NCBI RefSeq assembly: GCF_000172995.2 | Contig: NC_014729.1 | Coordinates: 1-32,000, forward strand | Direction of reading: 5' to 3' | Source of the DNA: Halogeometricum borinquense DSM 11551 | Lineage (GTDB): Archaea > Halobacteriota > Halobacteria > Halobacteriales > Haloferacaceae | DNA: 32,000 bases | In this document: positions 11,427 to 27,523 of the stretch, piece by piece | Layout: every line of letters begins with the position of its first letter | How positions within the stretch are numbered: the stretch's first letter is position 1 | The notes under the pieces: generated by a model | Told to the model about the DNA's origin: nothing | The model's database searches: none | The model's input: the letters and a program-made list of their open reading frames with translations, nothing else | Program-made: the position numbers and the translations under genes

Positions 11427-11615
11427 ATGGTACACTGTCCTGAATGTCAGTCCACCCTATCCTCCAGCGAAGATATCGCGTTTGAGGAGACCGAGGCGAG
11501 AACCGGCTTCGTCAGAGCATCCAAGCGGTTCTACACAGCAAACTGTGCGTCGTGCGGCATGACGATTGGGAGCGGCGTTGCAGGTGCGAAAGCAAACGGC
11601 GGAGGTGCCACCTAA
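11427..11615 (+). CDS. Small zinc-ribbon protein (CPxC...CxxCG), tandem paralogue 1
   Basis: 62 aa: MVHCPECQ...SKRFYTANCASCGMTIGSGVAGA. Four Cys in two knuckles. Confidence 0.6.
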   Translation: MVHCPECQSTLSSSEDIAFEETEARTGFVRASKRFYTANCASCGMTIGSGVAGAKANGGGAT

Positions 11616-11617
11616 CG

Positions 11618-11785
11618 ATGGTTCACTGCCCCGAATGCGAGACGGAGTTAGCCGGACAGGGTGACGTCGAATTCGTCGATTTAGGCGCTGAAACTGGATT
11701 TTTCAAAGCCTCGAAACGGTTCTACATCGTCGGCTGTAACGAGTGTGGTGCCGCAATCGGTAGCGGCGTTGCTGGCGCGCGGTAA
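11618..11785 (+). CDS. Small zinc-ribbon protein (CPxC...CxxCG), tandem paralogue 2
   Basis: 55 aa from ATG 11618, 2 nt after the preceding TAA. MVHCPECE...SKRFYIVGCNECGAAIGSGVAGAR is clearly paralogous to the preceding ORF. Confidence 0.6.
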   Translation: MVHCPECETELAGQGDVEFVDLGAETGFFKASKRFYIVGCNECGAAIGSGVAGAR

Positions 11786-12475: not shown

Positions 12476-12950
12476 CGGTTCCTCGCGGGCGCGGCGGGTG
12501 CGGCCTGCGTATCCCGCCGCGGGGAACGTCGTCTTCTCCCGGATTGACCGAGCGACGACAGAACGATCTTTCGACGCGGGTGTGTTTCGAGTGTGCGTCA
12601 TGGGTTATTCTGACTGAGAGCAACTGCTCTCTCGATACTATATGATATGCACCCATCGAACCTAAACCCTCGTTTCAGTTGGAACTGCTCGAACAGTCCC
12701 TGACGAGAGTAGCCACTCGATTGGATCTCGCGCGTTCGTTCTGGTGCGCGTACATTTCTATCCAGACGCCAATAGAATGTTTTTCTGACATTATTGTCGT
12801 AGAGAGCCAGATTAGACAAAAACCGCATTGAACGGAGGTAGAATACCTCTCAATGCCGTATAATATCCGAGTTAAACGGGCTTAATTTCGCATAAGGCGG
12901 ATTGTCCAACTCTCGGATACATACGAGCCGAAGAGTGTGTGGCAATCGTG

Positions 12951-13880
12951 ATGCGTCGAAACGCGACCATACTGATGACCGCCATGCTGCTCGTCGCAGC
13001 ACTGGCTACCGTGCCGATGGCGAGTGTCGCCCAATCGGAGGGCGGAACGACTGCGACCGAGACGCCGATGGCTGGATCAGATTCGACCAGCAACGAGAGT
13101 ACCCAATCCGGAGAACTGTTGAGCGGCGTTCTCGCCGTTCAGGATGCCGAAATCGCGCGCGAAGTCGAGACCCGAACGTTCGGGATTCGAGTCGCACAGG
13201 CGGCGACAGACGAGGCGAAAGCCGACGTCGTTGCCGAGCGGCTCAACTCGAACGAAGCGCGGCTTGCCGAACTCGAACAACGCAAAGCACGACTTGAGGC
13301 TGCGCGCGAGAACGGCTCGATAAGTAAAGGCGAGTACAACACGAGGATGGCCAGAGTCGCCGCCGAAACGGAGACAGTCAAAGAGCTAACCAACCGCTCT
13401 GCAACCGCCTCGGAAAGGCTTCCGAACGAGTTGCTGGAACAGCGAGGAGTCAACACCACGGCCATTCGGACCCTCGCGACGCGGGCTGAAGACCTGACTG
13501 GTCCAGAAGTCTCCGAAATCGCCCGTCAGATTGCGGGATCGGCCACCACCCGCGGAAACGCCACGGCGCACCGCGGTCCGTTCGAGGAGGTTCCCCCACG
13601 CGGCAACCACACCGAGAATGGTAACGGGCAAGCCAACGCTCACGGACAGCGTGAAACGCTGGAAAACGCCACTACGGAGAACGCCAGCAGCACGATTCCC
13701 GACAATGAGACGGCGACCGACACGCCGCTGTCGGGGTCTGAACAGGGAGCATCCGAGCGAGATAGCGACGACTCCACCAACGCGGGAAAAACCGATTCCA
13801 GCAGCAAAAGCGGCGCTGACGCGCGTGGGTCAGACGCTCTGTCTGTTTCGAGAAGCGGACTCCTCGTTCGAATCGAATGA
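12951..13880 (+). CDS. Secreted protein with a helical (coiled-coil-like) domain and an acidic low-complexity tail
   Basis: MRRNATILMTAMLLVAALATVPMASVAQS signal peptide, a heptad-like region (AERLNSNEARLAELEQRKARLEAAREN) and many N-x-S/T sequons. Stop overlaps the next start (ATGA at 13877-13880). Confidence 0.7.
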   Translation: MRRNATILMTAMLLVAALATVPMASVAQSEGGTTATETPMAGSDSTSNESTQSGELLSGVLAVQDAEIAREVETRTFGIRVAQAATDEAKADVVAERLNSNEARLAELEQRKARLEAARENGSISKGEYNTRMARVAAETETVKELTNRSATASERLPNELLEQRGVNTTAIRTLATRAEDLTGPEVSEIARQIAGSATTRGNATAHRGPFEEVPPRGNHTENGNGQANAHGQRETLENATTENASSTIPDNETATDTPLSGSEQGASERDSDDSTNAGKTDSSSKSGADARGSDALSVSRSGLLVRIE

Positions 13881-14590
13881 TGAACGAGGTGACGCGGTTC
13901 CTGTCGCTGTTGCTGGTCGGCGCAGTCGTACTTGCCGTCGGCACAGCATCGACTGCCGCGGCGGCGGAGCCAACTGAACCCGGACTCATCGTCGAACTGC
14001 ACGAGGACGGCTCAGCCACAGTGACGCTCCGAACGACCTACGACTTAGCGAGTGACGAGGAGGCGCGAGCGTTCACCGACCTGCGCGAGGACGACGACGC
14101 TCGTGAGAAACTCGTCGAAAAGTACAAAGACAGGATGTCTCGGGTCGCCGCAACGGCCGCAACAGAGACCGGTCGAACGATGCAGGTCACCAACGAACGT
14201 ATCGAACTCTCGACCAGCGGCGACGTGGGTGTCGTGGCGCTCTCAGTCCAGTGGGAGGGTCTCGCAGCGACAGATACCGGACGACTCGTCGTCACTCGCC
14301 CGTTCGCTGGCGACTTCGAAAGTGACCACTCACTCACACTCGTCGGACCACACGGCTACGACGTAACTGCGACCAATCCTTCGCCCGACAGCCAGACCGA
14401 GAATCGACTCACGTGGCAGTCGGGAACCGAACTGAACGAGTTCGAGGTGACGTTCGCCTCGTCTGACGCTGCCGAGAGCGAGGCGTCTGGAGACAGCACT
14501 GACACGGGAACGAACACTCCCGGATTCGGTATCGTCATCGCAAGCGTCGCCCTGCTTGGCGCTGCACTGTTGGCTCGACTCCGGGAGTGA
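13877..14590 (+). CDS. PGF-CTERM-anchored secreted protein
   Basis: 237 aa with an N-terminal signal peptide and a C-terminal Thr/Ser-rich linker. This is followed by PGFGIVIASVALLGAALLARLRE, the PGF-CTERM archaeosortase sorting signal. Confidence 0.8.
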   Translation: MMNEVTRFLSLLLVGAVVLAVGTASTAAAAEPTEPGLIVELHEDGSATVTLRTTYDLASDEEARAFTDLREDDDAREKLVEKYKDRMSRVAATAATETGRTMQVTNERIELSTSGDVGVVALSVQWEGLAATDTGRLVVTRPFAGDFESDHSLTLVGPHGYDVTATNPSPDSQTENRLTWQSGTELNEFEVTFASSDAAESEASGDSTDTGTNTPGFGIVIASVALLGAALLARLRE

Positions 14591-19067: not shown

Positions 19068-19823
19068 CTATGAATCTTGAATCTCAGTTGTCTTCTGAAC
19101 GCGGCTTACTTGGTTCGTGCTCCCCACGCTGACCGCCTGTACGTCGTCAGCGACGTTCTGAGTGATGTCCGAGACGCCGGTGTCGCCGTCAACGTTGGCC
19201 ACGTCGTCAACATCGGCACCACCGTTCTGCATCTCGGTCACGTCGATATCGACGGTTGTCACCGAATTCTGCTCGTGGGCCTCGTTCGTACTCTCTGCTG
19301 AGGTTTCGCTCGACCCCTCGTCGGACTGGACTGAGCCTACTTCCACCGTTACTGCTCCGCCCGATTCTCCCTCGGACTGGGTCGAAGACTCCTCGGCCGC
19401 CGCGTTCGGTCCCTCAACAGCCGTTGACACCTCCAGCGACTGACTGTCGTCCGCAACGTGGACATCCGTCACGCCCGGACTGTGTATGTACTGACCCGTG
19501 TCACCGCAGATCCCACCCATACAGGTGGGTGGGGCGGTTTGGCACTCAAGACCCATACAGACCGGTGGATGCGGGGATTGTGGATAGCACATGTCTCCCG
19601 GCCACAGGCAGGGGGTCGTCGGTGGGGGGAGACAGTGGACCCACGAAACACCTGAACAGGCCGGTTCTGGAATCTGAGCGTAAGTACGGTCACCCACACT
19701 AGGCGCATCTCCTGGTGCGGCGGATGCACTAACCGCGAATCCACCGAGGACTAGCATCGCCGCGAAAAGGACGACGATAGCGGGGACGATACCTACTGTG
19801 ATTTTATGTATTTTATCTTTCAT
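19068..19823 (-). CDS. Secreted Cys/Pro-rich protein with acidic C-terminal region, last gene of the small-protein array
   Basis: 251 aa from ATG 19823; the ORF-track start 19850 is TTG. Signal peptide MKDKIHKITVGIVPAIVVLFAAMLVLGGFAVSASA. Eight Cys lie in a Pro-rich ~60-aa stretch. The acidic tail contains QNVADDVQ and QNGGADV motif relics. Confidence 0.7.
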   Translation of the reverse strand: MKDKIHKITVGIVPAIVVLFAAMLVLGGFAVSASAAPGDAPSVGDRTYAQIPEPACSGVSWVHCLPPPTTPCLWPGDMCYPQSPHPPVCMGLECQTAPPTCMGGICGDTGQYIHSPGVTDVHVADDSQSLEVSTAVEGPNAAAEESSTQSEGESGGAVTVEVGSVQSDEGSSETSAESTNEAHEQNSVTTVDIDVTEMQNGGADVDDVANVDGDTGVSDITQNVADDVQAVSVGSTNQVSRVQKTTEIQDS

Positions 19824-19830
19824 GTTATGG

Positions 19831-19842
19831 ATAAAAAATATA
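19831..19842 (-). terminator. Oligo-T tract (TATATTTTTTAT on the minus strand) between paralogue 5 and the Cys-rich gene
   Basis: A T6 run lies immediately after the TAA of 19852..20103 and about 10 nt before ATG 19823. Archaeal termination or attenuation commonly uses T-runs, but it is too close to the ATG to serve as a TATA box. Confidence 0.25.
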
Positions 19843-19851
19843 CGCCCCAAA

Positions 19852-20103
19852 TTAAAGGACGTCTATATTGTTCTGGGTGGAGACGCTCACTTGCGTCACC
19901 TGAGCATTGTTGAGGTTGACAGCTGCAACCCCCCCATTCCAGCCCAGGTTTCCGCTGTTCTGCTGGACCGTCGCGTAGTTCGAGGCGACGTTGGCGTTGT
20001 TGCTCGCGTCGTCCGCGAGCGCTGCTGCCCCACCGCTGAACGCGGTGAGGACCAGCATCGCTGCGAAGAGGGCAACACCAATTCGACGGAATGTCACTCT
20101 CAT
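19852..20103 (-). CDS. Small secreted N/Q/G/A-rich protein, tandem paralogue 5 of 5 (two N-x-A-x-V-x-Q motifs)
   Basis: 83 aa. Signal MRVTFRRIGVALFAAMLVLTAFSGGAAA. Mature part ...NYATVQQNSGN...NNAQVTQVSVSTQNN. Confidence 0.7.
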   Translation of the reverse strand: MRVTFRRIGVALFAAMLVLTAFSGGAAALADDASNNANVASNYATVQQNSGNLGWNGGVAAVNLNNAQVTQVSVSTQNNIDVL

Positions 20104-20107
20104 GATC

Positions 20108-20356
20108 TCAGATGTTGTCTGTGTTAGTTTGGCTAGCTAACGCAACTTGAGTGACGCCCGCAGAGTTGGTGCTAAACGCGGAGAACCCGCCACCCGCGTT
20201 TCCGCTGTTCTGTGCGACGTACGCGCCATTGGACGCGATGTTCGTGTTGCCGCTCGCGTCGTCACCGTGGAATGCCGCCGCCCCGCCGCTGAACGCGGTG
20301 AGGACCAGCATCGCCGTGAGGAGAACGACGCCCATCCGGAGGACTGTGTCTCTCAT
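20108..20356 (-). CDS. Small secreted N/Q/G/A-rich protein, tandem paralogue 4 of 5
   Basis: 82 aa. Signal MRDTVLRMGVVLLTAMLVLTAFSGGAAA. The mature 54 aa have no K/R/E and include NGAYVAQNSGN and NSAGVTQVALASQTNTD. Confidence 0.7.
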   Translation of the reverse strand: MRDTVLRMGVVLLTAMLVLTAFSGGAAAFHGDDASGNTNIASNGAYVAQNSGNAGGGFSAFSTNSAGVTQVALASQTNTDNI

Positions 20357-20361
20357 TGGTC

Positions 20362-20604
20362 CTAGATGAGGTCCGTGTTGGACTGACCAGCTAGCGCCAC
20401 TTGAGTGACGTCGGCATGGTTGGAGTTAGCAGCGGAGAACAGACCGCCACCGCTGTTCTGTGCGACGTATGCGCCATTGTACGCGACGTTCGTGTTGTCG
20501 CTCGCGTCGTCACCGTGGTATGCCGCCGCCCCACCGCTGAACGCGGTGAGGACCAGCATCGCCGTGAGGAGAACGACGCCCATCCGAAGGATTGTGTCTC
20601 TCAT
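20362..20604 (-). CDS. Small secreted N/Q/G/A-rich protein, tandem paralogue 3 of 5
   Basis: 80 aa. The signal-coding DNA is nearly identical to paralogue 4. Mature part has NGAYVAQNSGG and NHADVTQVALAGQSNTD. Confidence 0.7.
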   Translation of the reverse strand: MRDTILRMGVVLLTAMLVLTAFSGGAAAYHGDDASDNTNVAYNGAYVAQNSGGGLFSAANSNHADVTQVALAGQSNTDLI

Positions 20605-20608
20605 GGTC

Positions 20609-20857
20609 TCAGATGTTGTCCGTGTTTTGCTGCAGCCCTATCGCCACTTGGGTGACTCCAGCGTGGTTACTGTTGAACGCGGAGAATCCGCCACCGTACG
20701 CGTTCCCGCTGTTCTGTTCGACGTATGCGCCGTTATACGCGATGTTGGTGTTGTCGCTCGCGTCGTCAGCGTACGCGGCTGCTCCACCGCTGAGCGCGGT
20801 GAGGACCAGCATCGCCGTAAGGAGAACGACGCCCATCCGAAGGAATGTTTCTTTCAT
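20609..20857 (-). CDS. Small secreted N/Q/G/A-rich protein, tandem paralogue 2 of 5
   Basis: 82 aa. Signal MKETFLRMGVVLLTAMLVLTALSGGAAA. Mature part has NGAYVEQNSGN and NHAGVTQVAIGLQQNTD. Confidence 0.7.
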   Translation of the reverse strand: MKETFLRMGVVLLTAMLVLTALSGGAAAYADDASDNTNIAYNGAYVEQNSGNAYGGGFSAFNSNHAGVTQVAIGLQQNTDNI

Positions 20858-20861
20858 GGTC

Positions 20862-21107
20862 TTAGATCCAGTCCGTGTTGGTCTGACTAGCTAACGCCAC
20901 TTGGGTGACGCCAGCGTCGTTGTGATTAAACGCGGAGGCGCCGGAACCCAGATTTCCGCTGTTCTGTACGACGTGCGCGTCATTATGCGCGACGTTGTAG
21001 TTGTTACTCGCGTCGTCACCGAGCGCGGCTGCCCCGCCGCTGAATGCGGTGAGGACCAGCATCGCAACGACGAGAACGCCGGTCATTCGGATTACTGCTT
21101 TTCTCAT
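20862..21107 (-). CDS. Small secreted N/Q/G/A-rich protein, tandem paralogue 1 of 5 (first in array)
   Basis: 81 aa. Signal MRKAVIRMTGVLVVAMLVLTAFSGGAAA. Mature part has NDAHVVQNSGN and NDAGVTQVALASQTNTD. Confidence 0.7.
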   Translation of the reverse strand: MRKAVIRMTGVLVVAMLVLTAFSGGAAALGDDASNNYNVAHNDAHVVQNSGNLGSGASAFNHNDAGVTQVALASQTNTDWI

Positions 21108-21135: not shown

Positions 21136-21611
21136 AACACATCCATGCCCCGTGGTAACCTTTGTTATAGTTACTACCCTTCTTAACAACGGATTCATTT
21201 GTTCGATAGAATGGCTCGTTTGAACGCTGAATTGAACGATTTGGGAAATCAGGCCCCAAGATTATTCGATCAAATAACCAATTAATACTCTCAGAGAATC
21301 TCACTGAGCAAGCGACGGCGCAGATTCGTCGGTACAGTACGAACCCGACGCGATACTGCACAACTGGCGCAGTTCGCCTGTTAGACCGCTACTGCGTACA
21401 CATCGAACTGTATGTTAGCCAGAATATTATCAGTTGTCGGATGTTTTTGAACCACGAAATGCGGAGAAACCGACGTCCTGAATTTCCGGGATATCAGTCC
21501 CACGAATCAGTTCCACAGCTGATTGCATGGGTTCGCGCCGTTCGCCACTACGGGAATCCAGCATCTGGACAGGACAGTGCCTAAACCAATCGTACCATCA
21601 CTCACGACCGC

Positions 21612-21800
21612 TTGACATCCTCCTCCGCCTGAAGGTGGAGGAATCCCGAGCGGTGGGAGTTTCAGGTTTGCAGTCCAATCACTGGACTACCAGCCCTTTT
21701 GGGCACGGGTAGTCCCACAGCATCGGACTGGTGGACTGATGGCGGTGCCAAACCGCTGTTACCCCTATCCTCGACCGTGTATGGCGTCCCGGTGTTGTTT
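21612..21800 (-). pseudogene. Relic of an IS1341-type (IS200/IS605 family) element: right end/omega-RNA-like segment plus decayed tnpB 3' end
   Basis: 21612-21673 matches 26218-26279 at 54 of 62 positions (my hand alignment), including the TCCTCCG..CTGAAG..GGAGGA hairpin. The minus-strand translation ...GNSGLAPPSV...GLQT* parallels the intact TnpB tail ...SNGWLAQPGV...ACKP*. Upstream frames are broken by stops. Confidence 0.5.
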
Positions 21801-22574
21801 TGGCCACGGGGACGCCAGCAGGCATCAGCAGAGTCGGGGGTATCGTCTGGTTCGCTTCAAGCAGTCAACACAGACACACGCTTCGAGCATGTGCGTTCAC
21901 CGATTGCCCTTTCGGATATTGCCTCGTTAGGTAGGCGGACAGGCCGCCTCCGTAGGACGGTTCAGAATCCGCTCCGTTCCGACCGATTCCTACCCTTCGG
22001 TACGGCGGCCTGTCAATTAAAGTTCTCGTAGGAAACTCAGAGCGTCCGTTTGAGCGGTAGACTGGTGCCCAGAGTGACGGCGCGTATCCACGGCCTGAAG
22101 GCCGTGATATTGCGCCTGTTCCACGTATAAGAGAGAGCGACTATCGCTGGAGAAGGACCTGTGACCTACACGGGGTGCGTCGAGATCTCTGATGCGAGGG
22201 AAGGTCCGCCGTCTACGGCGGAGAAGGTGCGAGGAATCCGCACGTATCGACAGAGCCACAGCGGGAAGAGGGAAATCACGCGAGCCCCACTGTTTCCGAA
22301 CAACGTGAGAGGCGTGGATGCACTCGGAGACTACCTTCGTCTTGTCCGGGTCATGCGTACTCTGACTGGAGATGAGGGTTGTGCCACGCGTGCGAGAGTG
22401 TATGATGCACCAGGACAGACGCACAAATCGGCCGAGTACTCACGCTCGAAGCTGACAAGAGAACGCTGCTCGGTGAGGAGTTGGCGGAGATATACTCTAC
22501 TGGTGGCTACACAGGAAAAGTACGGAACGAGTATGCCGGAGCGGCGTGTGTCCGTCGGTGGTGACGTGACCTGT

Positions 22575-24245
22575 TCAAGCGGACGTGAGGCTCCGCCAGA
22601 GTATGTCGGCCCCGTTTCGAAGCCCTTCGAACAACAACCGCGAGACGGCATCGACACCACCGAGGTCGCCAGCAAACAGCGGCAAGAGGTACGCGACGAA
22701 CAGGACACTGGCGACGATACTGCCGACGTTAGTCAAGGCGACAATCGCAAGCAATCGAAGGAGCGGAACGCTCGCCACCTTCGAACGGATGTCCGAGAGG
22801 CCGTCGTCACCACTCAACAACTCGTTTAGCGCGTCGAAGTCGGCAACATCCACCGGTGTCCGACGGAGTTCGACGTAGCCGACGAACCAGCCCGGAGCCA
22901 ACACTGGATTGACGGACGTAAGCCAAGCGACTGCACCACCCGTTAACGCAGCAGTCCAGCACGCGCCGGCCAAATAGGCCATTCCCGCAGCGAACACGCC
23001 GTTGACCAGAAACCACGCAACGAACACTTCGAGTAGATACGCGTCGTCAACACCTGCCATCGCTAAGAGAACGAAAGAGGCGACGAACGCGACTGAGATG
23101 AGCGCACCGGCAATTTTTTTCACCGGAACAGACGGACCTCGGCTTGTCCCAACGAGCGTCCCGTGTGGTGGAAGCGTTGCAGGATTCGAGAGGTACTGTT
23201 CCACGCCGCCTCGGTGACCCGCTCCCAGTACAGCCACGACATCCAACCCCGAATCACGGAGCGCCACGAGTTGGTAGGCGATGTAGGCGTCGCGTTCGTC
23301 GATGAGCGCTCTCGCCCCGTTAGGACAGAGCTCGCGGAACTCCGTGAGCATCGTCTGTACCACATCAGTGTCAGTGAGATCCGCTGCGACGAATTCGTCG
23401 GCTTCGTCGATGTCGATGCCACTGAGTCCGAGACGCTCGGCCACGAGTCCGCCGAGGACACCGACCACGAGACCGGCCGACAGACCGATCAAGAGACTCC
23501 CGATCCCGTGAAGCAGCATCGGCGGCAGATAGGCGGTTACAGTCCCATCAGCTATGCCAAGTCCTGCACCAGCGAGAAGCCCGATACTTACCCCACCGGT
23601 TAGCGACGCGGTCACCACTGTCCGATGGTCGAAAATCGCCTTTCCGACGGTGTAGAGGACCGTACCAACAGCAAGAGCAAGCAGTCCGCTCGCAGCGACG
23701 CGGGTCAAGAGTGGATCGGTGACGCCGAAATTTCCGCCGAACAGGCCGACAATCGGTCCCAACGTGATGCCGATAAACAGGCCGAGTACGAGTCCTACTG
23801 TGCGAGTGTCAGCGAATCCGAGCAGCAATCCGCCGGCTAGGCGAAGCTTCTCTCTGATCGTCATCTGTGACCAGAAGCGCTGGACGGTCACTCTGATATC
23901 ACGATCAACGAGTGCGATGTCAGTTCCGATCTCGTCGGCGGTTTCGACGGCTTTGAGCAGTTCGCTCCCTGGTTCGATGTCGAACTGGTCTCCGAGTTGA
24001 GCCTGTACGTACGAAAGAACCCAGTGAAGAATGAGTCGGACACTCGTCGTCGATTCCAACAGCGCTTCGGGGTCTGGGTCGTCTGTGTCACCCGTGAGTC
24101 GGCGGTAGCGGCCTTCGTCCAGTTCGACGGCGACCACATCAGGGTGTTCGTCACGAATCACAGACTCGACCTCGCGGACGCTGTCCGCGGAGACGTGAGC
24201 CGTCCCGACAATCCGAATCGTTCCGTTCTCCGTTCGTTCGCTCAC
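22575..24245 (-). CDS. TraB/PrgY/GumN-superfamily membrane protein
   Basis: Start proposed at GTG 24245 (VSERTENGTIRIVGTAHVSADSVREV), overlapping the upstream stop (GTGA). TraB motifs GTAHVS and, later, VLGAGHRGGV are separated by several hydrophobic helices, and further TM helices follow at the C-terminus. Confidence 0.85.
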   Translation of the reverse strand: MSERTENGTIRIVGTAHVSADSVREVESVIRDEHPDVVAVELDEGRYRRLTGDTDDPDPEALLESTTSVRLILHWVLSYVQAQLGDQFDIEPGSELLKAVETADEIGTDIALVDRDIRVTVQRFWSQMTIREKLRLAGGLLLGFADTRTVGLVLGLFIGITLGPIVGLFGGNFGVTDPLLTRVAASGLLALAVGTVLYTVGKAIFDHRTVVTASLTGGVSIGLLAGAGLGIADGTVTAYLPPMLLHGIGSLLIGLSAGLVVGVLGGLVAERLGLSGIDIDEADEFVAADLTDTDVVQTMLTEFRELCPNGARALIDERDAYIAYQLVALRDSGLDVVAVLGAGHRGGVEQYLSNPATLPPHGTLVGTSRGPSVPVKKIAGALISVAFVASFVLLAMAGVDDAYLLEVFVAWFLVNGVFAAGMAYLAGACWTAALTGGAVAWLTSVNPVLAPGWFVGYVELRRTPVDVADFDALNELLSGDDGLSDIRSKVASVPLLRLLAIVALTNVGSIVASVLFVAYLLPLFAGDLGGVDAVSRLLFEGLRNGADILWRSLTSA

Positions 24246-24793
24246 GAGGAGATCACCCCCGCGAGAATGGTTCCGAACACGAGAAGGATGACGACACTTG
24301 TGACGTTCACGAGTGGTTGGAACAGAAGATAGACGAGTAGTACCGCGATAGATCCAGAGACGACCGCCCCCTGCGCGGGAGAGACGCGTAGCCACCTCCA
24401 AGCGCCTCTCACAGTGTGTTTCTCCTGGAAGAATGATCCGAGTTCGGAGAGCTTGTCGGTCGTGTGGACGATGCCTTGTGACCGGTCGTATTCGATGAAG
24501 CCCGCGTTCTCCAGTGTTGGAAGGTGCGTCTGGTAGAACGAGTTGTAGACGCTCTGATACTGTCTGAGCGAGATATCATCGACGAGGGTATCGTTCTCCC
24601 AAGCGGTTACTTGTTCAGCGAGAGAGCCACACGAGACACTCTCGTCGATCGCATAGAGATAATAGAGGATATACCGTCGGCGTCGGTTCCCGAGTACCTC
24701 GAAGAGTTCGTTTCGACAGAACTCGTCTAACTGTTCACTGTCTTCGGACGGCAGTGTATGGGTGAGATAGCTCAGGCTCATGGACAGTTCCAT
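24242..24793 (-). CDS. Membrane-tethered winged-helix (ArsR-like) protein of the haloarchaeal LFEVLxNRRRRYxLxYL type
   Basis: The wHTH signature ELFEVLGNRRRRYILYYL...SLAEQVTAWEN...LYQTHLPTLENAGFIEYD is followed by two C-terminal hydrophobic helices. The start is uncertain (ATG 24793, 24781 or 24904). Confidence 0.7.
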   Translation of the reverse strand: MELSMSLSYLTHTLPSEDSEQLDEFCRNELFEVLGNRRRRYILYYLYAIDESVSCGSLAEQVTAWENDTLVDDISLRQYQSVYNSFYQTHLPTLENAGFIEYDRSQGIVHTTDKLSELGSFFQEKHTVRGAWRWLRVSPAQGAVVSGSIAVLLVYLLFQPLVNVTSVVILLVFGTILAGVISS

Positions 24794-25450
24794 CCCAGCG
24801 TAATACGCAACTGTATCAGCGTATCGTACCTCTGCGTGCTGTGCCCCCAGAGTAGTAGCGTCGGTCGCTGGGTGTCTCCCATCATCACATGACCAAGTTG
24901 ACATCCTGTAGTATTGTTACAAGCCGTAAAAGATGACAGAAGACGAATATGGATACAACAAACCATTCGATTATTCAAATCGCTCACAGATAGTATTCTA
25001 TTTACAGAATAAGTACTGCGTACGATAACTTACCGAAGGGCAGTACTACAGCTAGATCGTACTTTCACGCCCTCTATCCAACATCTGGATCATCATTACA
25101 GGACAGTACACCCAATAGAATATGAGCAGTCAGTAGTTCTATTTTCTACGCCATTTCAGTCGGAAGTGCCGTCTTTAAACTTATGATCTTTATCTGATAT
25201 ATAGACCAGTATATCCATCCGACTATACATATTCAATGACTGTTAAATCGGCCTCGTTCGGAGCAGAGATTGGTTGAGCGGTGAGTTTCGTACGGACAGC
25301 AAACACGTTCGTCCGTCACTTCCTTCGACAGTCTCTGAACCGTGTCGTCAATCCTTTCTGCACCAGGACCGTTTGTTCGGGTATGATTCACCCGCACGTG
25401 GCTACTGGCGAGGGGCGAACAGTTCGGTTCGAACGGAGGTGGAGTTAGTA

Positions 25451-26221: not shown

Positions 26222-26400
26222 CATCCTCCTCCGACTGAAGCCGGAGGAATCCCGAGCGTTGGGATATTACGGTTTGCAGGCTCCCTGTTCTCTCGTGTTG
26301 AACGACCCGCTCTCGCGGTCGAACAGGAAGACTCCGGGCTGTGCCAACCAGCCGTTACTCATATCCCCTGTTGGGGGACTCTGAGTTATCTTTCGTCGGA
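26198..26400 (-). ncRNA. Predicted omega-RNA (sense-overlapping tnpB 3'-end transcript), scaffold plus flanking guide
   Basis: Inferred from the known TnpB architecture: scaffold overlapping the tnpB 3' end and right end, guide read from flanking DNA. A conserved 9-bp hairpin lies at 26226-26247. Extent is approximate and no transcript data exist. Confidence 0.4.
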
Positions 26401-27523
26401 TATTCACCGCACCGTTCACGTCTGCGTTCATCGTCGTCTCGCACGACGAACAGACGTACAGCCCTCGCTCCACGCGGTTGCTATCCCGAATCTTCCCGCA
26501 ACACGAACACGTCTTCGAGGTGTTCTCCTCGTCCACACGGTCAACGAGGATGCCGTGTTCCTCGGCCTTGTATTCAAGGAGACGGGCGAATCGGTCGAAC
26601 TCCCAGCCGTGCAACTTCTTGTTTTCCGACGCACCCCAGTTCCGCGAGTCACCGTTTTCATTCTCGCGGATGTCACTGAGGTCGCCAACCGCTATCTTCT
26701 CCACGCCTTCTTCCACACACCGCTCAACGATGTGTTTGCTGAGGGTGTGAAGGAAGTGGTCTTTGCGTCGGGAGAGTTTCTGTCGAGCCTTCCGCGCTCG
26801 CTTCGACGGGCCGTTCTCGCCTTCGGTCTGGTACTCCTCGCGGGTGAAGTAGTGTTTGTCCTCTTTCAGCACGTTCCCCGGATATAGTTCGCTCTCGCCA
26901 TCTTCGTAGTCGATGGCGAGGTAGTTGCTGATACCGAGGTCGATACCCGCCGTGTTGTTTCCGGGTGCGTCTTCGACTGGAATCTCCGTCTTGCAGACGA
27001 GGTGGAGTTCCCACTCGTCGCCGTTCCAGACGGCACGCACCTGCTGGATGTTCTCAACTTCTACGTCGGGGCGAGTTTCGTACTCCGCGAGGATGAAGTC
27101 AGACCGACTCTCTTTCAGGTTAAACCCTTTCGAGAGACGGAGTTGACCGTGCTTGTCGTCGTGCTTGATGGCCCGTTTCTTCCACGTGACGGTGGAGCGC
27201 GGGTGGTCGTCGCCACGTTTCCGGTAGCCCGGTGGGTTGTTGCCGTCGTCGGAGTTGTACCAGCCAGTGAACGCCTCAGCAAGTTCTTCGAGAACTCGCT
27301 GACTTGACTGAGAATGAAGGTCACTGTAGCGTTTGTGGTCTTTCAACTCCGATTTGAGTTCGGCTTCGTCGGGTATCTCACCGTCGTCGTCCCACCGTTG
27401 TTGGATGTAGTAGCGACCGACGTTCCACAGTTTGGATGCGGAGAACCCGCACTGGTCGAGGTCGTCACGAACCTGCTGGTGGTTCGTAATGCGTGCGACG
27501 TAGGTGCGGGTGGTTTCCAGCAT
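26267..27523 (-). CDS. tnpB: RNA-guided endonuclease TnpB (IS605 OrfB family)
   Basis: 418 aa. RuvC-I TAGIDLGISNYLAI, zinc finger CSCCG...CSSCE and RuvC-III NADVNGAVNIRRK are all present. Confidence 0.93.
   Translation of the reverse strand: MLETTRTYVARITNHQQVRDDLDQCGFSASKLWNVGRYYIQQRWDDDGEIPDEAELKSELKDHKRYSDLHSQSSQRVLEELAEAFTGWYNSDDGNNPPGYRKRGDDHPRSTVTWKKRAIKHDDKHGQLRLSKGFNLKESRSDFILAEYETRPDVEVENIQQVRAVWNGDEWELHLVCKTEIPVEDAPGNNTAGIDLGISNYLAIDYEDGESELYPGNVLKEDKHYFTREEYQTEGENGPSKRARKARQKLSRRKDHFLHTLSKHIVERCVEEGVEKIAVGDLSDIRENENGDSRNWGASENKKLHGWEFDRFARLLEYKAEEHGILVDRVDEENTSKTCSCCGKIRDSNRVERGLYVCSSCETTMNADVNGAVNIRRKITQSPPTGDMSNGWLAQPGVFLFDRESGSFNTREQGACKP

Follow-up and report, generated by a model that had tools for sequence, protein, structure and literature searches.

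Positions 19068-21107 of a 32,000-nucleotide stretch of the Halogeometricum borinquense DSM 11551 chromosome (NC_014729.1, positions 1 to 32,000; hereafter the window) carry five tandem genes for small secreted paralogues followed by a sixth gene for a secreted cysteine (Cys)-rich protein, all co-directional on the minus strand. A first-pass annotation of this DNA, made from the sequence alone, had read the block as a candidate fibre or functional-amyloid system with curlin-like motifs. We found that the six open reading frames (ORFs) are genuine coding genes under purifying selection, and that the pairing of small exported proteins with a Cys-rich secreted partner, which that annotation had singled out, is kept in two other lineages. 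As the most plausible account, which we hold tentatively, we propose that these genes encode extracellular proteins that leave the cell by the Sec route and associate with one another, forming a new system restricted to a few lineages. Judged by sequence, their likeness to bacterial curli is convergent and not homologous, lying in composition and in a polar asparagine/glutamine (N/Q) motif.

A tandem array of small coding genes

The gene coordinates bear out the arrangement described at first pass: the five small ORFs are separated by spacers of 4, 4, 5 and 4 nt, and 28 nt precede the sixth (Table 1). Tandem Repeats Finder recovered the array at the DNA level (period 253, 4.5 copies, score 1172), and at the protein level identity to paralogue 1 is 60-73%. 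All five precursors have the architecture that had been proposed for them, a hydrophobic signal of ~28 aa ending in SGGAAA followed by a mature part of 52-55 residues (~5 kDa), and none of the mature proteins contains Cys. The residue count given earlier for paralogue 4 proved exact (54 mature residues, with 8 N, 3 Q, 8 G, 9 A, 7 S, 5 T, 3 D and no K, R or E). The motif N-x-A-x-V-x-Q occurs exactly twice in each of the five paralogues, the copies lying 19-23 residues apart, and the flanking motifs reported for it were likewise present in 5/5: NSG[NG] comes directly after the first copy, and V-[AS]-x-x-x-Q-x-N-[TI]-D after the second.

Intact reading frames in two strains and native codon usage show that the array genes are genuine coding genes under purifying selection. 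In a second H. borinquense strain, CP048739, 6/6 ORFs are intact at 97% DNA identity, and the GC content at third codon positions (GC3) of the array genes, 0.70-0.76, is similar to that of neighbouring genes such as PCNA and TatC. Between the two strains, the ratio of nonsynonymous to synonymous substitution rates (dN/dS) was 0.38 when the five small genes were pooled; the Cys-rich gene gave 0.29 and the neighbouring PCNA gene 0. Paralogues 2 and 4 differ from each other by a dS of ~0.87, which indicates that the array is old and that its copies have been individually retained. The locus is chromosomal and is found in every H. borinquense assembly seen, with its protein products all annotated as hypothetical.

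An 11-nt element, TATAACMAAGK, occurs exactly once in each array-bearing locus (L002-L007), 47-62 nt 5' of the first small gene, and nowhere else in the 88 loci that were fetched. It is also unique in the 32-kb window, where 0.01 occurrences would be expected by chance, and is a good candidate for a promoter TATA region or an operator. The five tightly coupled paralogues, together with the partner gene that follows an oligo-T tract, would make up a putative single transcription unit behind this element. The tract in question is a run of six T residues (T6) in the spacer before the Cys-rich gene (19824-19851), and the equivalent spacer of a related locus, L005, also has a T6 run. Archaeal transcription terminates at oligo-T tracts, from which we infer a putative terminator or attenuator that would make the partner less strongly expressed than the small genes; alternatively, the tract may be part of an internal promoter.

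Table 1. Features of the array and of its upstream neighbours in the window.
Feature	Coordinates	Strand	Remarks
Small secreted paralogue 1	20862..21107	-	81 aa (28-aa signal, 53-aa mature part); intact in strain CP048739, dN/dS 0.57
Small secreted paralogue 2	20609..20857	-	82 aa
Small secreted paralogue 3	20362..20604	-	80 aa
Small secreted paralogue 4	20108..20356	-	82 aa; only the signal helix is confident in AlphaFold2
Small secreted paralogue 5	19852..20103	-	83 aa; annotated as Hbor_00280 / ADQ65641.1
Cys/Pro-rich secreted partner	19068..19823	-	251 aa, ATG at 19823; related signal peptide, acidic C-terminal half
T6 run	19833..19838	-	inside the 28-nt spacer between paralogue 5 and the Cys-rich gene
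Conserved upstream element TATAACAAAGGT	21158..21169	-	62 nt before the first start codon; consensus TATAACMAAGK; candidate TATA-box promoter or operator
TraB/PrgY/Tiki-family membrane protein	22575..24245	-	PF01963 3e-21, TIGR00261 6e-68; link to array uncertain
DUF7344 protein	24242..24904	-	PF24035 6.5e-27; weakly ArsR-like winged-helix type; overlaps TraB start by 4 nt; candidate regulator

Export signals and conserved residues

Each small protein begins with a 28-aa segment made up of basic residues (one or two Arg/Lys in residues 2-7), a 15-residue hydrophobic core (residues 8-22 on the Kyte-Doolittle scale) and SGGAAA. The S-G-G-A-x-A box is invariant or nearly so across the small-protein family, and a twin arginine is absent from four of the five H. 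borinquense signals. With a basic n-region, a hydrophobic core and small residues at -3/-1, the small proteins have the properties of Sec/signal peptidase I precursors, and their signals fit Sec export with predicted signal peptidase I cleavage, not Tat, lipoprotein or class III (pilin) processing. Archaeal type IV pilins were rejected as candidates, as the class III cleavage motif, [KR]-[GA] right in front of the hydrophobic stretch, is not conserved in the family: R-A-A-S-V appears only in two copies from L005 and is absent from all H. borinquense copies, from P0008 and from the other L005 copies; moreover, no array protein had a pilin Pfam match.

Conservation in the mature part is sparse and polar. 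Across the three lineages in which the family occurs the only invariant mature positions are N39, Q76 and N78, with N53, A60 and A66 nearly invariant, and within the H. borinquense units the invariant residues are N11, N15, V19, Q21, N22, N36, A38, V40, T41, Q42, V43, Q48 and N50. The unusual composition remarked upon at first pass is quantitatively right and is nearly the same as that of mature CsgA, the curli subunit. Pooled mature peptides and mature CsgA gave 0.08 and 0.08 for D+E, 0.00 and 0.03 for K+R, 0.24 and 0.21 for N+Q, 0.27 and 0.29 for G+A, and 0.16 and 0.16 for S+T.

Haloarchaeal surface proteins are commonly N-glycosylated. The mature small proteins contain 7-12 Asn per ~53 residues, yet they have no N-x-S/T sequon at all (0 versus 7.0 expected for the five H. 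borinquense copies, shuffle p = 1.5e-4; 0 versus 4.9 expected with one protein per lineage, p = 0.003), and none was found in the Cys-rich protein. Set against the usual glycosylation of such proteins, the absence of sequons suggests that bare Asn side chains matter. This would be expected for tight beta-stacking, and it would also suit a peptide ligand.

The Cys/Pro-rich partner

The sixth protein has eight Cys between residues 56 and 106, including the motif A-C-x6-H-C-L-P-P-P. Its signal region is related to those of the small proteins (hhalign E 3e-5), and a signal of the type …LVL..[FL]SGGA.A is common to the small proteins and the Cys-rich partners. In GenBank and RefSeq this gene is only 150 aa long (ADQ65640.1, WP_006054971.1, P0014), with its start at Met102 (MGGICGDTGQ), a model that drops the signal peptide and the entire Cys-rich region. 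Because the homologous partners in other lineages have both of these parts, we take the long 251-aa form to be the real one, and the 150-aa form is probably a start-codon mis-annotation. The idea that the C-terminal half of the Cys-rich protein is a degenerate small-protein unit was rejected, with an hhalign probability of 0.15%.

Related clusters in uncultured lineages

The survey for the same array elsewhere, which the first-pass annotation had suggested, yielded small genes with a Cys-rich partner in two further, uncultured lineages. A word-indexed search of 5.8 billion proteins with the small family returned H. borinquense only, and with the Cys-rich protein only the query itself was matched. 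An exhaustive HMMER search of 1.84 billion cluster representatives then added a few distant relatives of the small family, and a second indexed search with the enlarged alignment two more. The family as assembled comprises three lineages: H. borinquense, L005 with its variant L006, and L007. There was no match in a metagenome scan with the small-protein profile or in a viral scan, and none in tblastn searches of plasmids with a small protein and with the Cys-rich protein.

L005 is a 29.8-kb hypersaline metagenome contig on which a gene for a DUF7344 protein with two C-terminal transmembrane segments is followed by a TraB gene (4-nt overlap), a gene for a 212-aa protein, a gap of ~800 nt and the array. 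In this array four small paralogues stand in tandem, 5 nt apart, and behind them come genes for a Cys-rich secreted protein of 123 aa and for a second, soluble DUF7344 protein. The 212-aa protein contains the catalytic SGSMxP box and matches TIGR02228 (1.8e-9, below the curated cut-off) and human SEC11A (6.7e-7); we predict that this protein of L005 and L006 is a divergent signal peptidase I of the archaeal/endoplasmic reticulum type. The order in the window is that of L005 minus the peptidase: DUF7344, TraB, gap, array, Cys-rich gene. The closely related contig L006 has the same peptidase and two small genes where L005 has four (L005 9272-10258 versus L006 1284-1792), and array copy number appears to vary within a population. 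L007, a short Logan contig, has one small gene and then a Cys-rich secreted protein, with a small N-rich secreted ORF upstream on the other strand.

All three lineages share the partner motif C-x(3-6)-H-C-[LP]-P-P, which reads ACSQHAFHCLPPP in L005 and LCESIHCPPP in L007. From these comparisons the minimal conserved module appears to be at least one small protein and a partner with this motif. Just downstream of the L005 cluster (11507-11758, plus strand), and followed by a BAT/HTH_10 regulator, lies an 83-aa ORF that has two Cys and a signal peptide like those of the cluster (…AAMVLVAFGGTAAA); its product may also belong to the exported set.

Two other candidates were set aside. A match to a Mageeibacillus metagenome-assembled genome in a genome-collection scan was a signal-peptide look-alike only. 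The second-best match of the exhaustive search, the 929-aa repeat protein P0007 (E 2e-8 summed over 6 repeats), was judged compositional or spurious: part of the signal c-region is included in the aligned stretch, and the annotation of P0007 is uninformative.

At a separate locus of one H. borinquense strain, the small-protein unit recurs in a large protein, RYJ15478.1 (ELS19_14545; L088 9279-11196, contig RZHH01000002.1), whose gene is split by an assembly gap. The protein begins with a hydrophobic, signal-like segment, continues with a long N-E-T-rich linker and then has two tandem units of ~45 aa, the same as the small-protein unit (…NVNNAGVTQVAISLQYN…), and then a C-terminal domain present as two repeats (TRDEISQAKYGYDFAALS…). 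No family in Pfam or PHROGs matched it. RYJ15478.1 may be a surface anchor for the small proteins.

A proposed system of self-associating extracellular proteins

In the scheme that we tentatively favour, the Sec-type signal peptide would be removed by signal peptidase I at S-G-G-A-x-A, freeing a peptide of ~53 residues that lacks basic residues and sequons and has few acidic residues. The peptides would stay unfolded until export and would then stack through their beta-strands into an abundant material outside the cell or on its surface, for instance a fibre, matrix or coat. In this material the five paralogues would serve as major subunits, and the Cys-rich protein, present in smaller amounts, as anchor, nucleator or cross-linker. 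Attachment to the surface could be provided by the large two-unit protein of H. borinquense, with the upstream membrane-anchored DUF7344 protein as regulator.

We favour such a material because several features converge on it: tandem gene dosage, a dedicated signal peptidase in a related cluster, avoidance of sequons, mature conservation confined to N and Q, reuse of the unit in a large protein, and the curli-like composition of the H. borinquense proteins. Tandem multi-copy genes suggest high dosage, and the T6 tract before the partner gene in two lineages is a hint of a structural role. Taken together, the contextual evidence fits a self-assembling extracellular material and does not prove it.

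Known systems provide partial analogues. The short chaplins of Streptomyces (ChpD-H) are several paralogues with Sec signals and mature peptides of ~50-55 residues that assemble into surface amyloid layers, and they are the closest analogue in size and gene multiplicity. However, chaplins are strongly hydrophobic with a conserved Cys pair, whereas the array proteins are polar, N/Q-rich and free of Cys, and chaplin genes do not lie in one tight tandem operon as the array genes do. A full Pfam scan of the array proteins gave no match to the chaplin model. In the TapA-SipW-TasA system of B. subtilis SipW is the dedicated signal peptidase for TasA. That system, tafi (TafA-G; PMC11821415) and archaeal bundling pili (AbpA; PMC9245690) have in common with the array clusters a logic of secreted major and minor subunits with a regulator. 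A predicted signal peptidase I inside the cluster likens L005 and L006 in particular to the tafi and TasA systems (TafD is a dedicated signal peptidase in haloarchaeal tafi, PMC11821415), while the H. borinquense cluster is without one. Donor-strand fibre subunits are beta-sandwich proteins of 17-25 kDa, exported via Tat in the case of tafi, whereas the array subunits are ~5 kDa with Sec-type signals. Models for TasA/Peptidase_M73 and for the SipW-cognate signal TIGR04088 had no match among the array proteins at E up to 10.

A number of points weigh against a self-assembling material. The small family is rare, being confined to three lineages among billions of proteins, and its mature size of ~5 kDa is far below that of known archaeal fibre subunits. 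The small relatives of L005 are 16-22% acidic, so that the uncharged, curli-like composition is specific to H. borinquense. No signal peptidase was found by tblastn in the TraB-array gap or in the cluster, either in the window or in strain CP048739. A dN/dS of ~0.4 would also suit fast-evolving secreted effectors. Finally, in AlphaFold2 with a 12-sequence alignment the signal helix alone was modelled confidently and the mature part had a pLDDT below 50, and an artificial concatenate of the five mature parts, modelled without an alignment, reached a pLDDT of 34; models of such low confidence are uninformative, supporting neither assembly nor its absence.

A bolder version of the scheme, which we consider unlikely, is that the array constitutes the first genetically defined functional-amyloid-like system of the Halobacteria, a fibre or matrix assembled by beta-stacking. 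It would consist of 5-kDa Sec-exported N/Q-ladder peptides from a tandem array, nucleated or anchored by the Cys/Pro-rich partner and the large two-unit surface protein. It would be independent of curli, Fap and chaplins, and would have converged on the same composition despite salt-in pressure for acidic proteins.

Upstream TraB and DUF7344 genes and the possibility of diffusible peptides

The neighbours of the array are genes for a DUF7344 protein, TraB, PCNA, a DUF7979-like protein and the primase large subunit (PriL). By hydropathy the DUF7344 protein has C-terminal transmembrane segments at 180-196 and 198-218, and its alternative start codon is possibly at 24793. A literature search on DUF7344 and on Hbor_00270 to Hbor_00320 found nothing, and the text and supplement of the H. 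borinquense secretome paper are without these loci.

The main rival reading of the array, also named at first pass, is that its products are diffusible secreted peptides, either intercellular signals or halocin-like antimicrobials. There would be five variants of the peptide; the Cys-rich protein would act as a further effector or would serve in immunity or processing, and TraB and DUF7344 would control or sense the peptides. This is possible, and we rate it as less probable than a self-assembling material. In its favour, the genes are multi-copy and encode small exported products that evolve fairly fast (dN/dS 0.38), their distribution is narrow and patchy, and copy number is four in L005 versus two in L006. 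In Enterococcus, peptide pheromones are under the control of PrgY/TraB proteins, and the Tiki/TraB fold is predicted to be that of a protease. As in that system, small exported peptides here stand beside a TraB/PrgY-family membrane protein and a DNA-binding regulator. The enterococcal pheromones, however, are 7-8-residue fragments of lipoprotein signal peptides, whereas the conserved, selected part of the array proteins is a 50-aa mature domain. The DUF7344-TraB-array order is present in two lineages, H. borinquense and L005, whose TraB proteins are not each other's closest relatives.

Against a functional link stands the distribution of TraB itself. TraB (arCOG02142) is broadly conserved in Euryarchaeota, as a predicted Tiki-type membrane metalloprotease (PMC12462473), and archaeal TraB is usually without array-type neighbours, unlike in the enterococcal pairing. 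We surveyed 80 metagenomic TraB loci (L008-L087), ~60 of them with a readable downstream flank, and hmmsearch found a small-family member near TraB in 0 of these ~60. None of the surveyed metagenomic TraB loci has a same-strand DUF7344 gene upstream, one having DUF7344 on the opposite strand, so that the same-strand arrangement is confined to array-bearing loci. Because a same-strand DUF7344 gene stands upstream of TraB only where an array is present, and TraB loci occur without arrays, it is DUF7344 that co-varies with the array, and TraB may be only a positional neighbour or landing site. We regard the membrane-anchored DUF7344 protein as the likeliest candidate for an array regulator; a role of TraB in N-terminal trimming, or in releasing the membrane-tethered regulator, is possible.

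Other evidence also tells against diffusible peptides. The H. borinquense cluster contains no ABC exporter, immunity-like gene or modifying enzyme, and no transporter or immunity candidate was found in the array cluster. Models of halocin C8 and of bacteriocins in Pfam and NCBIfam had no significant match, the nearest being P0010 to Bacteriocin_IId with an E of only 0.094, in the signal region. The chromosomal position of the locus and its presence in every H. borinquense assembly seen are further points against this reading. The tandem unit in a large protein and the dedicated signal peptidase suit a structural role better. A ribosomally synthesised and post-translationally modified peptide (RiPP) precursor was likewise rejected: the H. 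borinquense cluster lacks modifying enzymes, and the small proteins begin with a hydrophobic Sec-type signal in place of a leader peptide.

Less likely readings: envelope proteins and curlin homology

A reading that we consider more unlikely still is that the array encodes non-polymerising envelope proteins. These would be uncleaved signal-anchored mini-proteins or monomeric S-layer accessories that bind ions or the surface, accompanied by a metal-binding or disulphide-bonded Cys-rich partner. A hydrophobic N-terminus could serve as an anchor if uncleaved, the C-x-H-C-x-P-P-P motif could bind metal, and only the N-terminal helix was ordered in AlphaFold2. However, the hydrophobic core is only ~15 residues long and is followed by a strictly conserved S-G-G-A-x-A typical of signal peptidase I cleavage, a signal peptidase gene is part of the related cluster, and it is difficult to see why a stoichiometric accessory should be encoded in five near-redundant copies.

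That the proteins are true homologues of curlin (CsgA/CsgB), and the locus an archaeal curli system, is very improbable and effectively refuted at the sequence level, even though N-x-A-x3-Q occurs twice per protein at 19-23 residues (22 in CsgA) and composition is almost identical to mature CsgA. A CsgA control, the Escherichia coli sequence confirmed against PDB 8ENQ at 2.7e-79, was matched by Curlin_rpt (PF07012) at 1.4e-27 over 5 stretches; the same model gave no match at E up to 10 on the five small proteins or on their concatenated mature parts, which hold ten motif copies. Comparison with CsgA by hhalign gave a probability of 0.3% at full length and 0.45% for the mature parts, the latter being a 7-residue VTQV match only. 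A PDB profile search with the small-protein alignment returned noise only (E ~1), the PDB including CsgA structures 8ENQ and 8C50.

The curlin-like motif reported at first pass is half right. In a regular-expression search against the consensus S-x5-Q-x-G-x-G-N-x-A-x3-Q, the N-x-A-x3-Q half was present twice per protein, and Q-x-G-x-G-N and S-x5-Q were absent from 5/5. The proposal of an archaeal curli analogue survives as regards composition and partial motif, and it fails as regards an evolutionary or profile link. Membership of the curlin, chaplin or TasA families, suggested as something that profile searches might reveal, was not borne out by any match in Pfam or NCBIfam at E up to 10. The six array proteins and their relatives had no significant match in Pfam, NCBIfam, PADLOC or PHROGs. 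With the PDB result included, this agrees with the earlier statement that no described family corresponds to them.

As analogues, the two systems share Sec-exported, almost uncharged proteins rich in N, Q, G, A, S and T, whose composition agrees within 0.03 per residue class, with N-x-A-x3-Q about every 21 residues and a major subunit beside a distinct minor partner. They differ in that curli subunits have five full strand-loop-strand repeats and the array proteins two half-motifs in 53 aa, the multiplicity of the array being achieved by five separate genes. The array's partner is Cys/Pro-rich and unrelated to the major subunit. In addition, the CsgE/F/G machinery is missing, no csgE/F/G-type genes having been found near the array, and archaea are without an outer membrane.

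Implications

Systems in which small secreted subunits self-assemble alongside a minor partner, in some cases with a signal peptidase of their own, are already known; the novelty here lies in the sequence family and its Cys/Pro-rich partner, in the size of the subunits and in their occurrence in haloarchaea. At 2-4 M salt nearly all secreted proteins are highly acidic and glycosylated, and if the mini-proteins self-assemble they would represent convergent evolution on curli-like chemistry under these conditions. Amyloid-type staining has been reported for haloarchaeal biofilms. We know of no genes that account for it, and a literature search for such genes found none. Self-assembling mini-proteins would offer a tractable genetic handle on archaeal matrix formation, because H. 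borinquense can be cultured and its genetic manipulation has been achieved (PMC11566945). Should the mini-proteins be signals or toxins instead, the conserved set of DUF7344, TraB and signal peptidase would be a new archaeal module for peptide communication or antagonism. Under either reading the small family is unannotated, the sixth gene is, in all probability, mis-annotated in GenBank, and the 11-nt element is a directly testable candidate regulatory site.

Further features of the TraB region and of the window

The usual gene downstream of metagenomic haloarchaeal TraB encodes a membrane protein of ~210-220 aa with a HELAHK motif, of site-2-protease/M50-like type, and the two may form a conserved protease pair. 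The HELAHK protein is missing downstream of TraB in both array-bearing loci.

The TraB-array gap is 1467 bp in the window versus 873 bp in CP048739, a difference that is mainly a ~516-bp insertion (21614-22127) with ~84 bp extra near 22420-22504. One end of the insertion (21621-21800, minus strand) matches the Rfam model sot0042 with 43.7 bits (E 1e-9, below the gathering score), which stands for an RNA family overlapping the 3' ends of TnpB. The insertion resembles a solo right-end remnant of IS200/IS605 type, omega-RNA-like in its match. Elsewhere in the window a TnpB-type gene of 418 aa (26227-27523, minus strand; OrfB_IS605 and Cas12f1-like TNB domain) lies between the FtsJ/TRAM and Vut_1 transporter genes. 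Its 3' end matches sot0042 with 91.4 bits, above the gathering score, and the whole appears to be an intact unit of TnpB and guide RNA. This element is apparently missing at that position in CP048739, where FtsJ and Vut_1 are much closer together.

Two adjacent ORFs at 12939-14590 (plus strand) possibly encode secreted or surface proteins. One has a weak match to DUF7096 (E 3e-4, below the Pfam cut-off), and the other matches DUF7345 and carries a PGF-CTERM archaeosortase sorting signal. DUF7344 and DUF7345 have adjacent Pfam accession numbers, and their representatives lie ~10 kb apart in the window.

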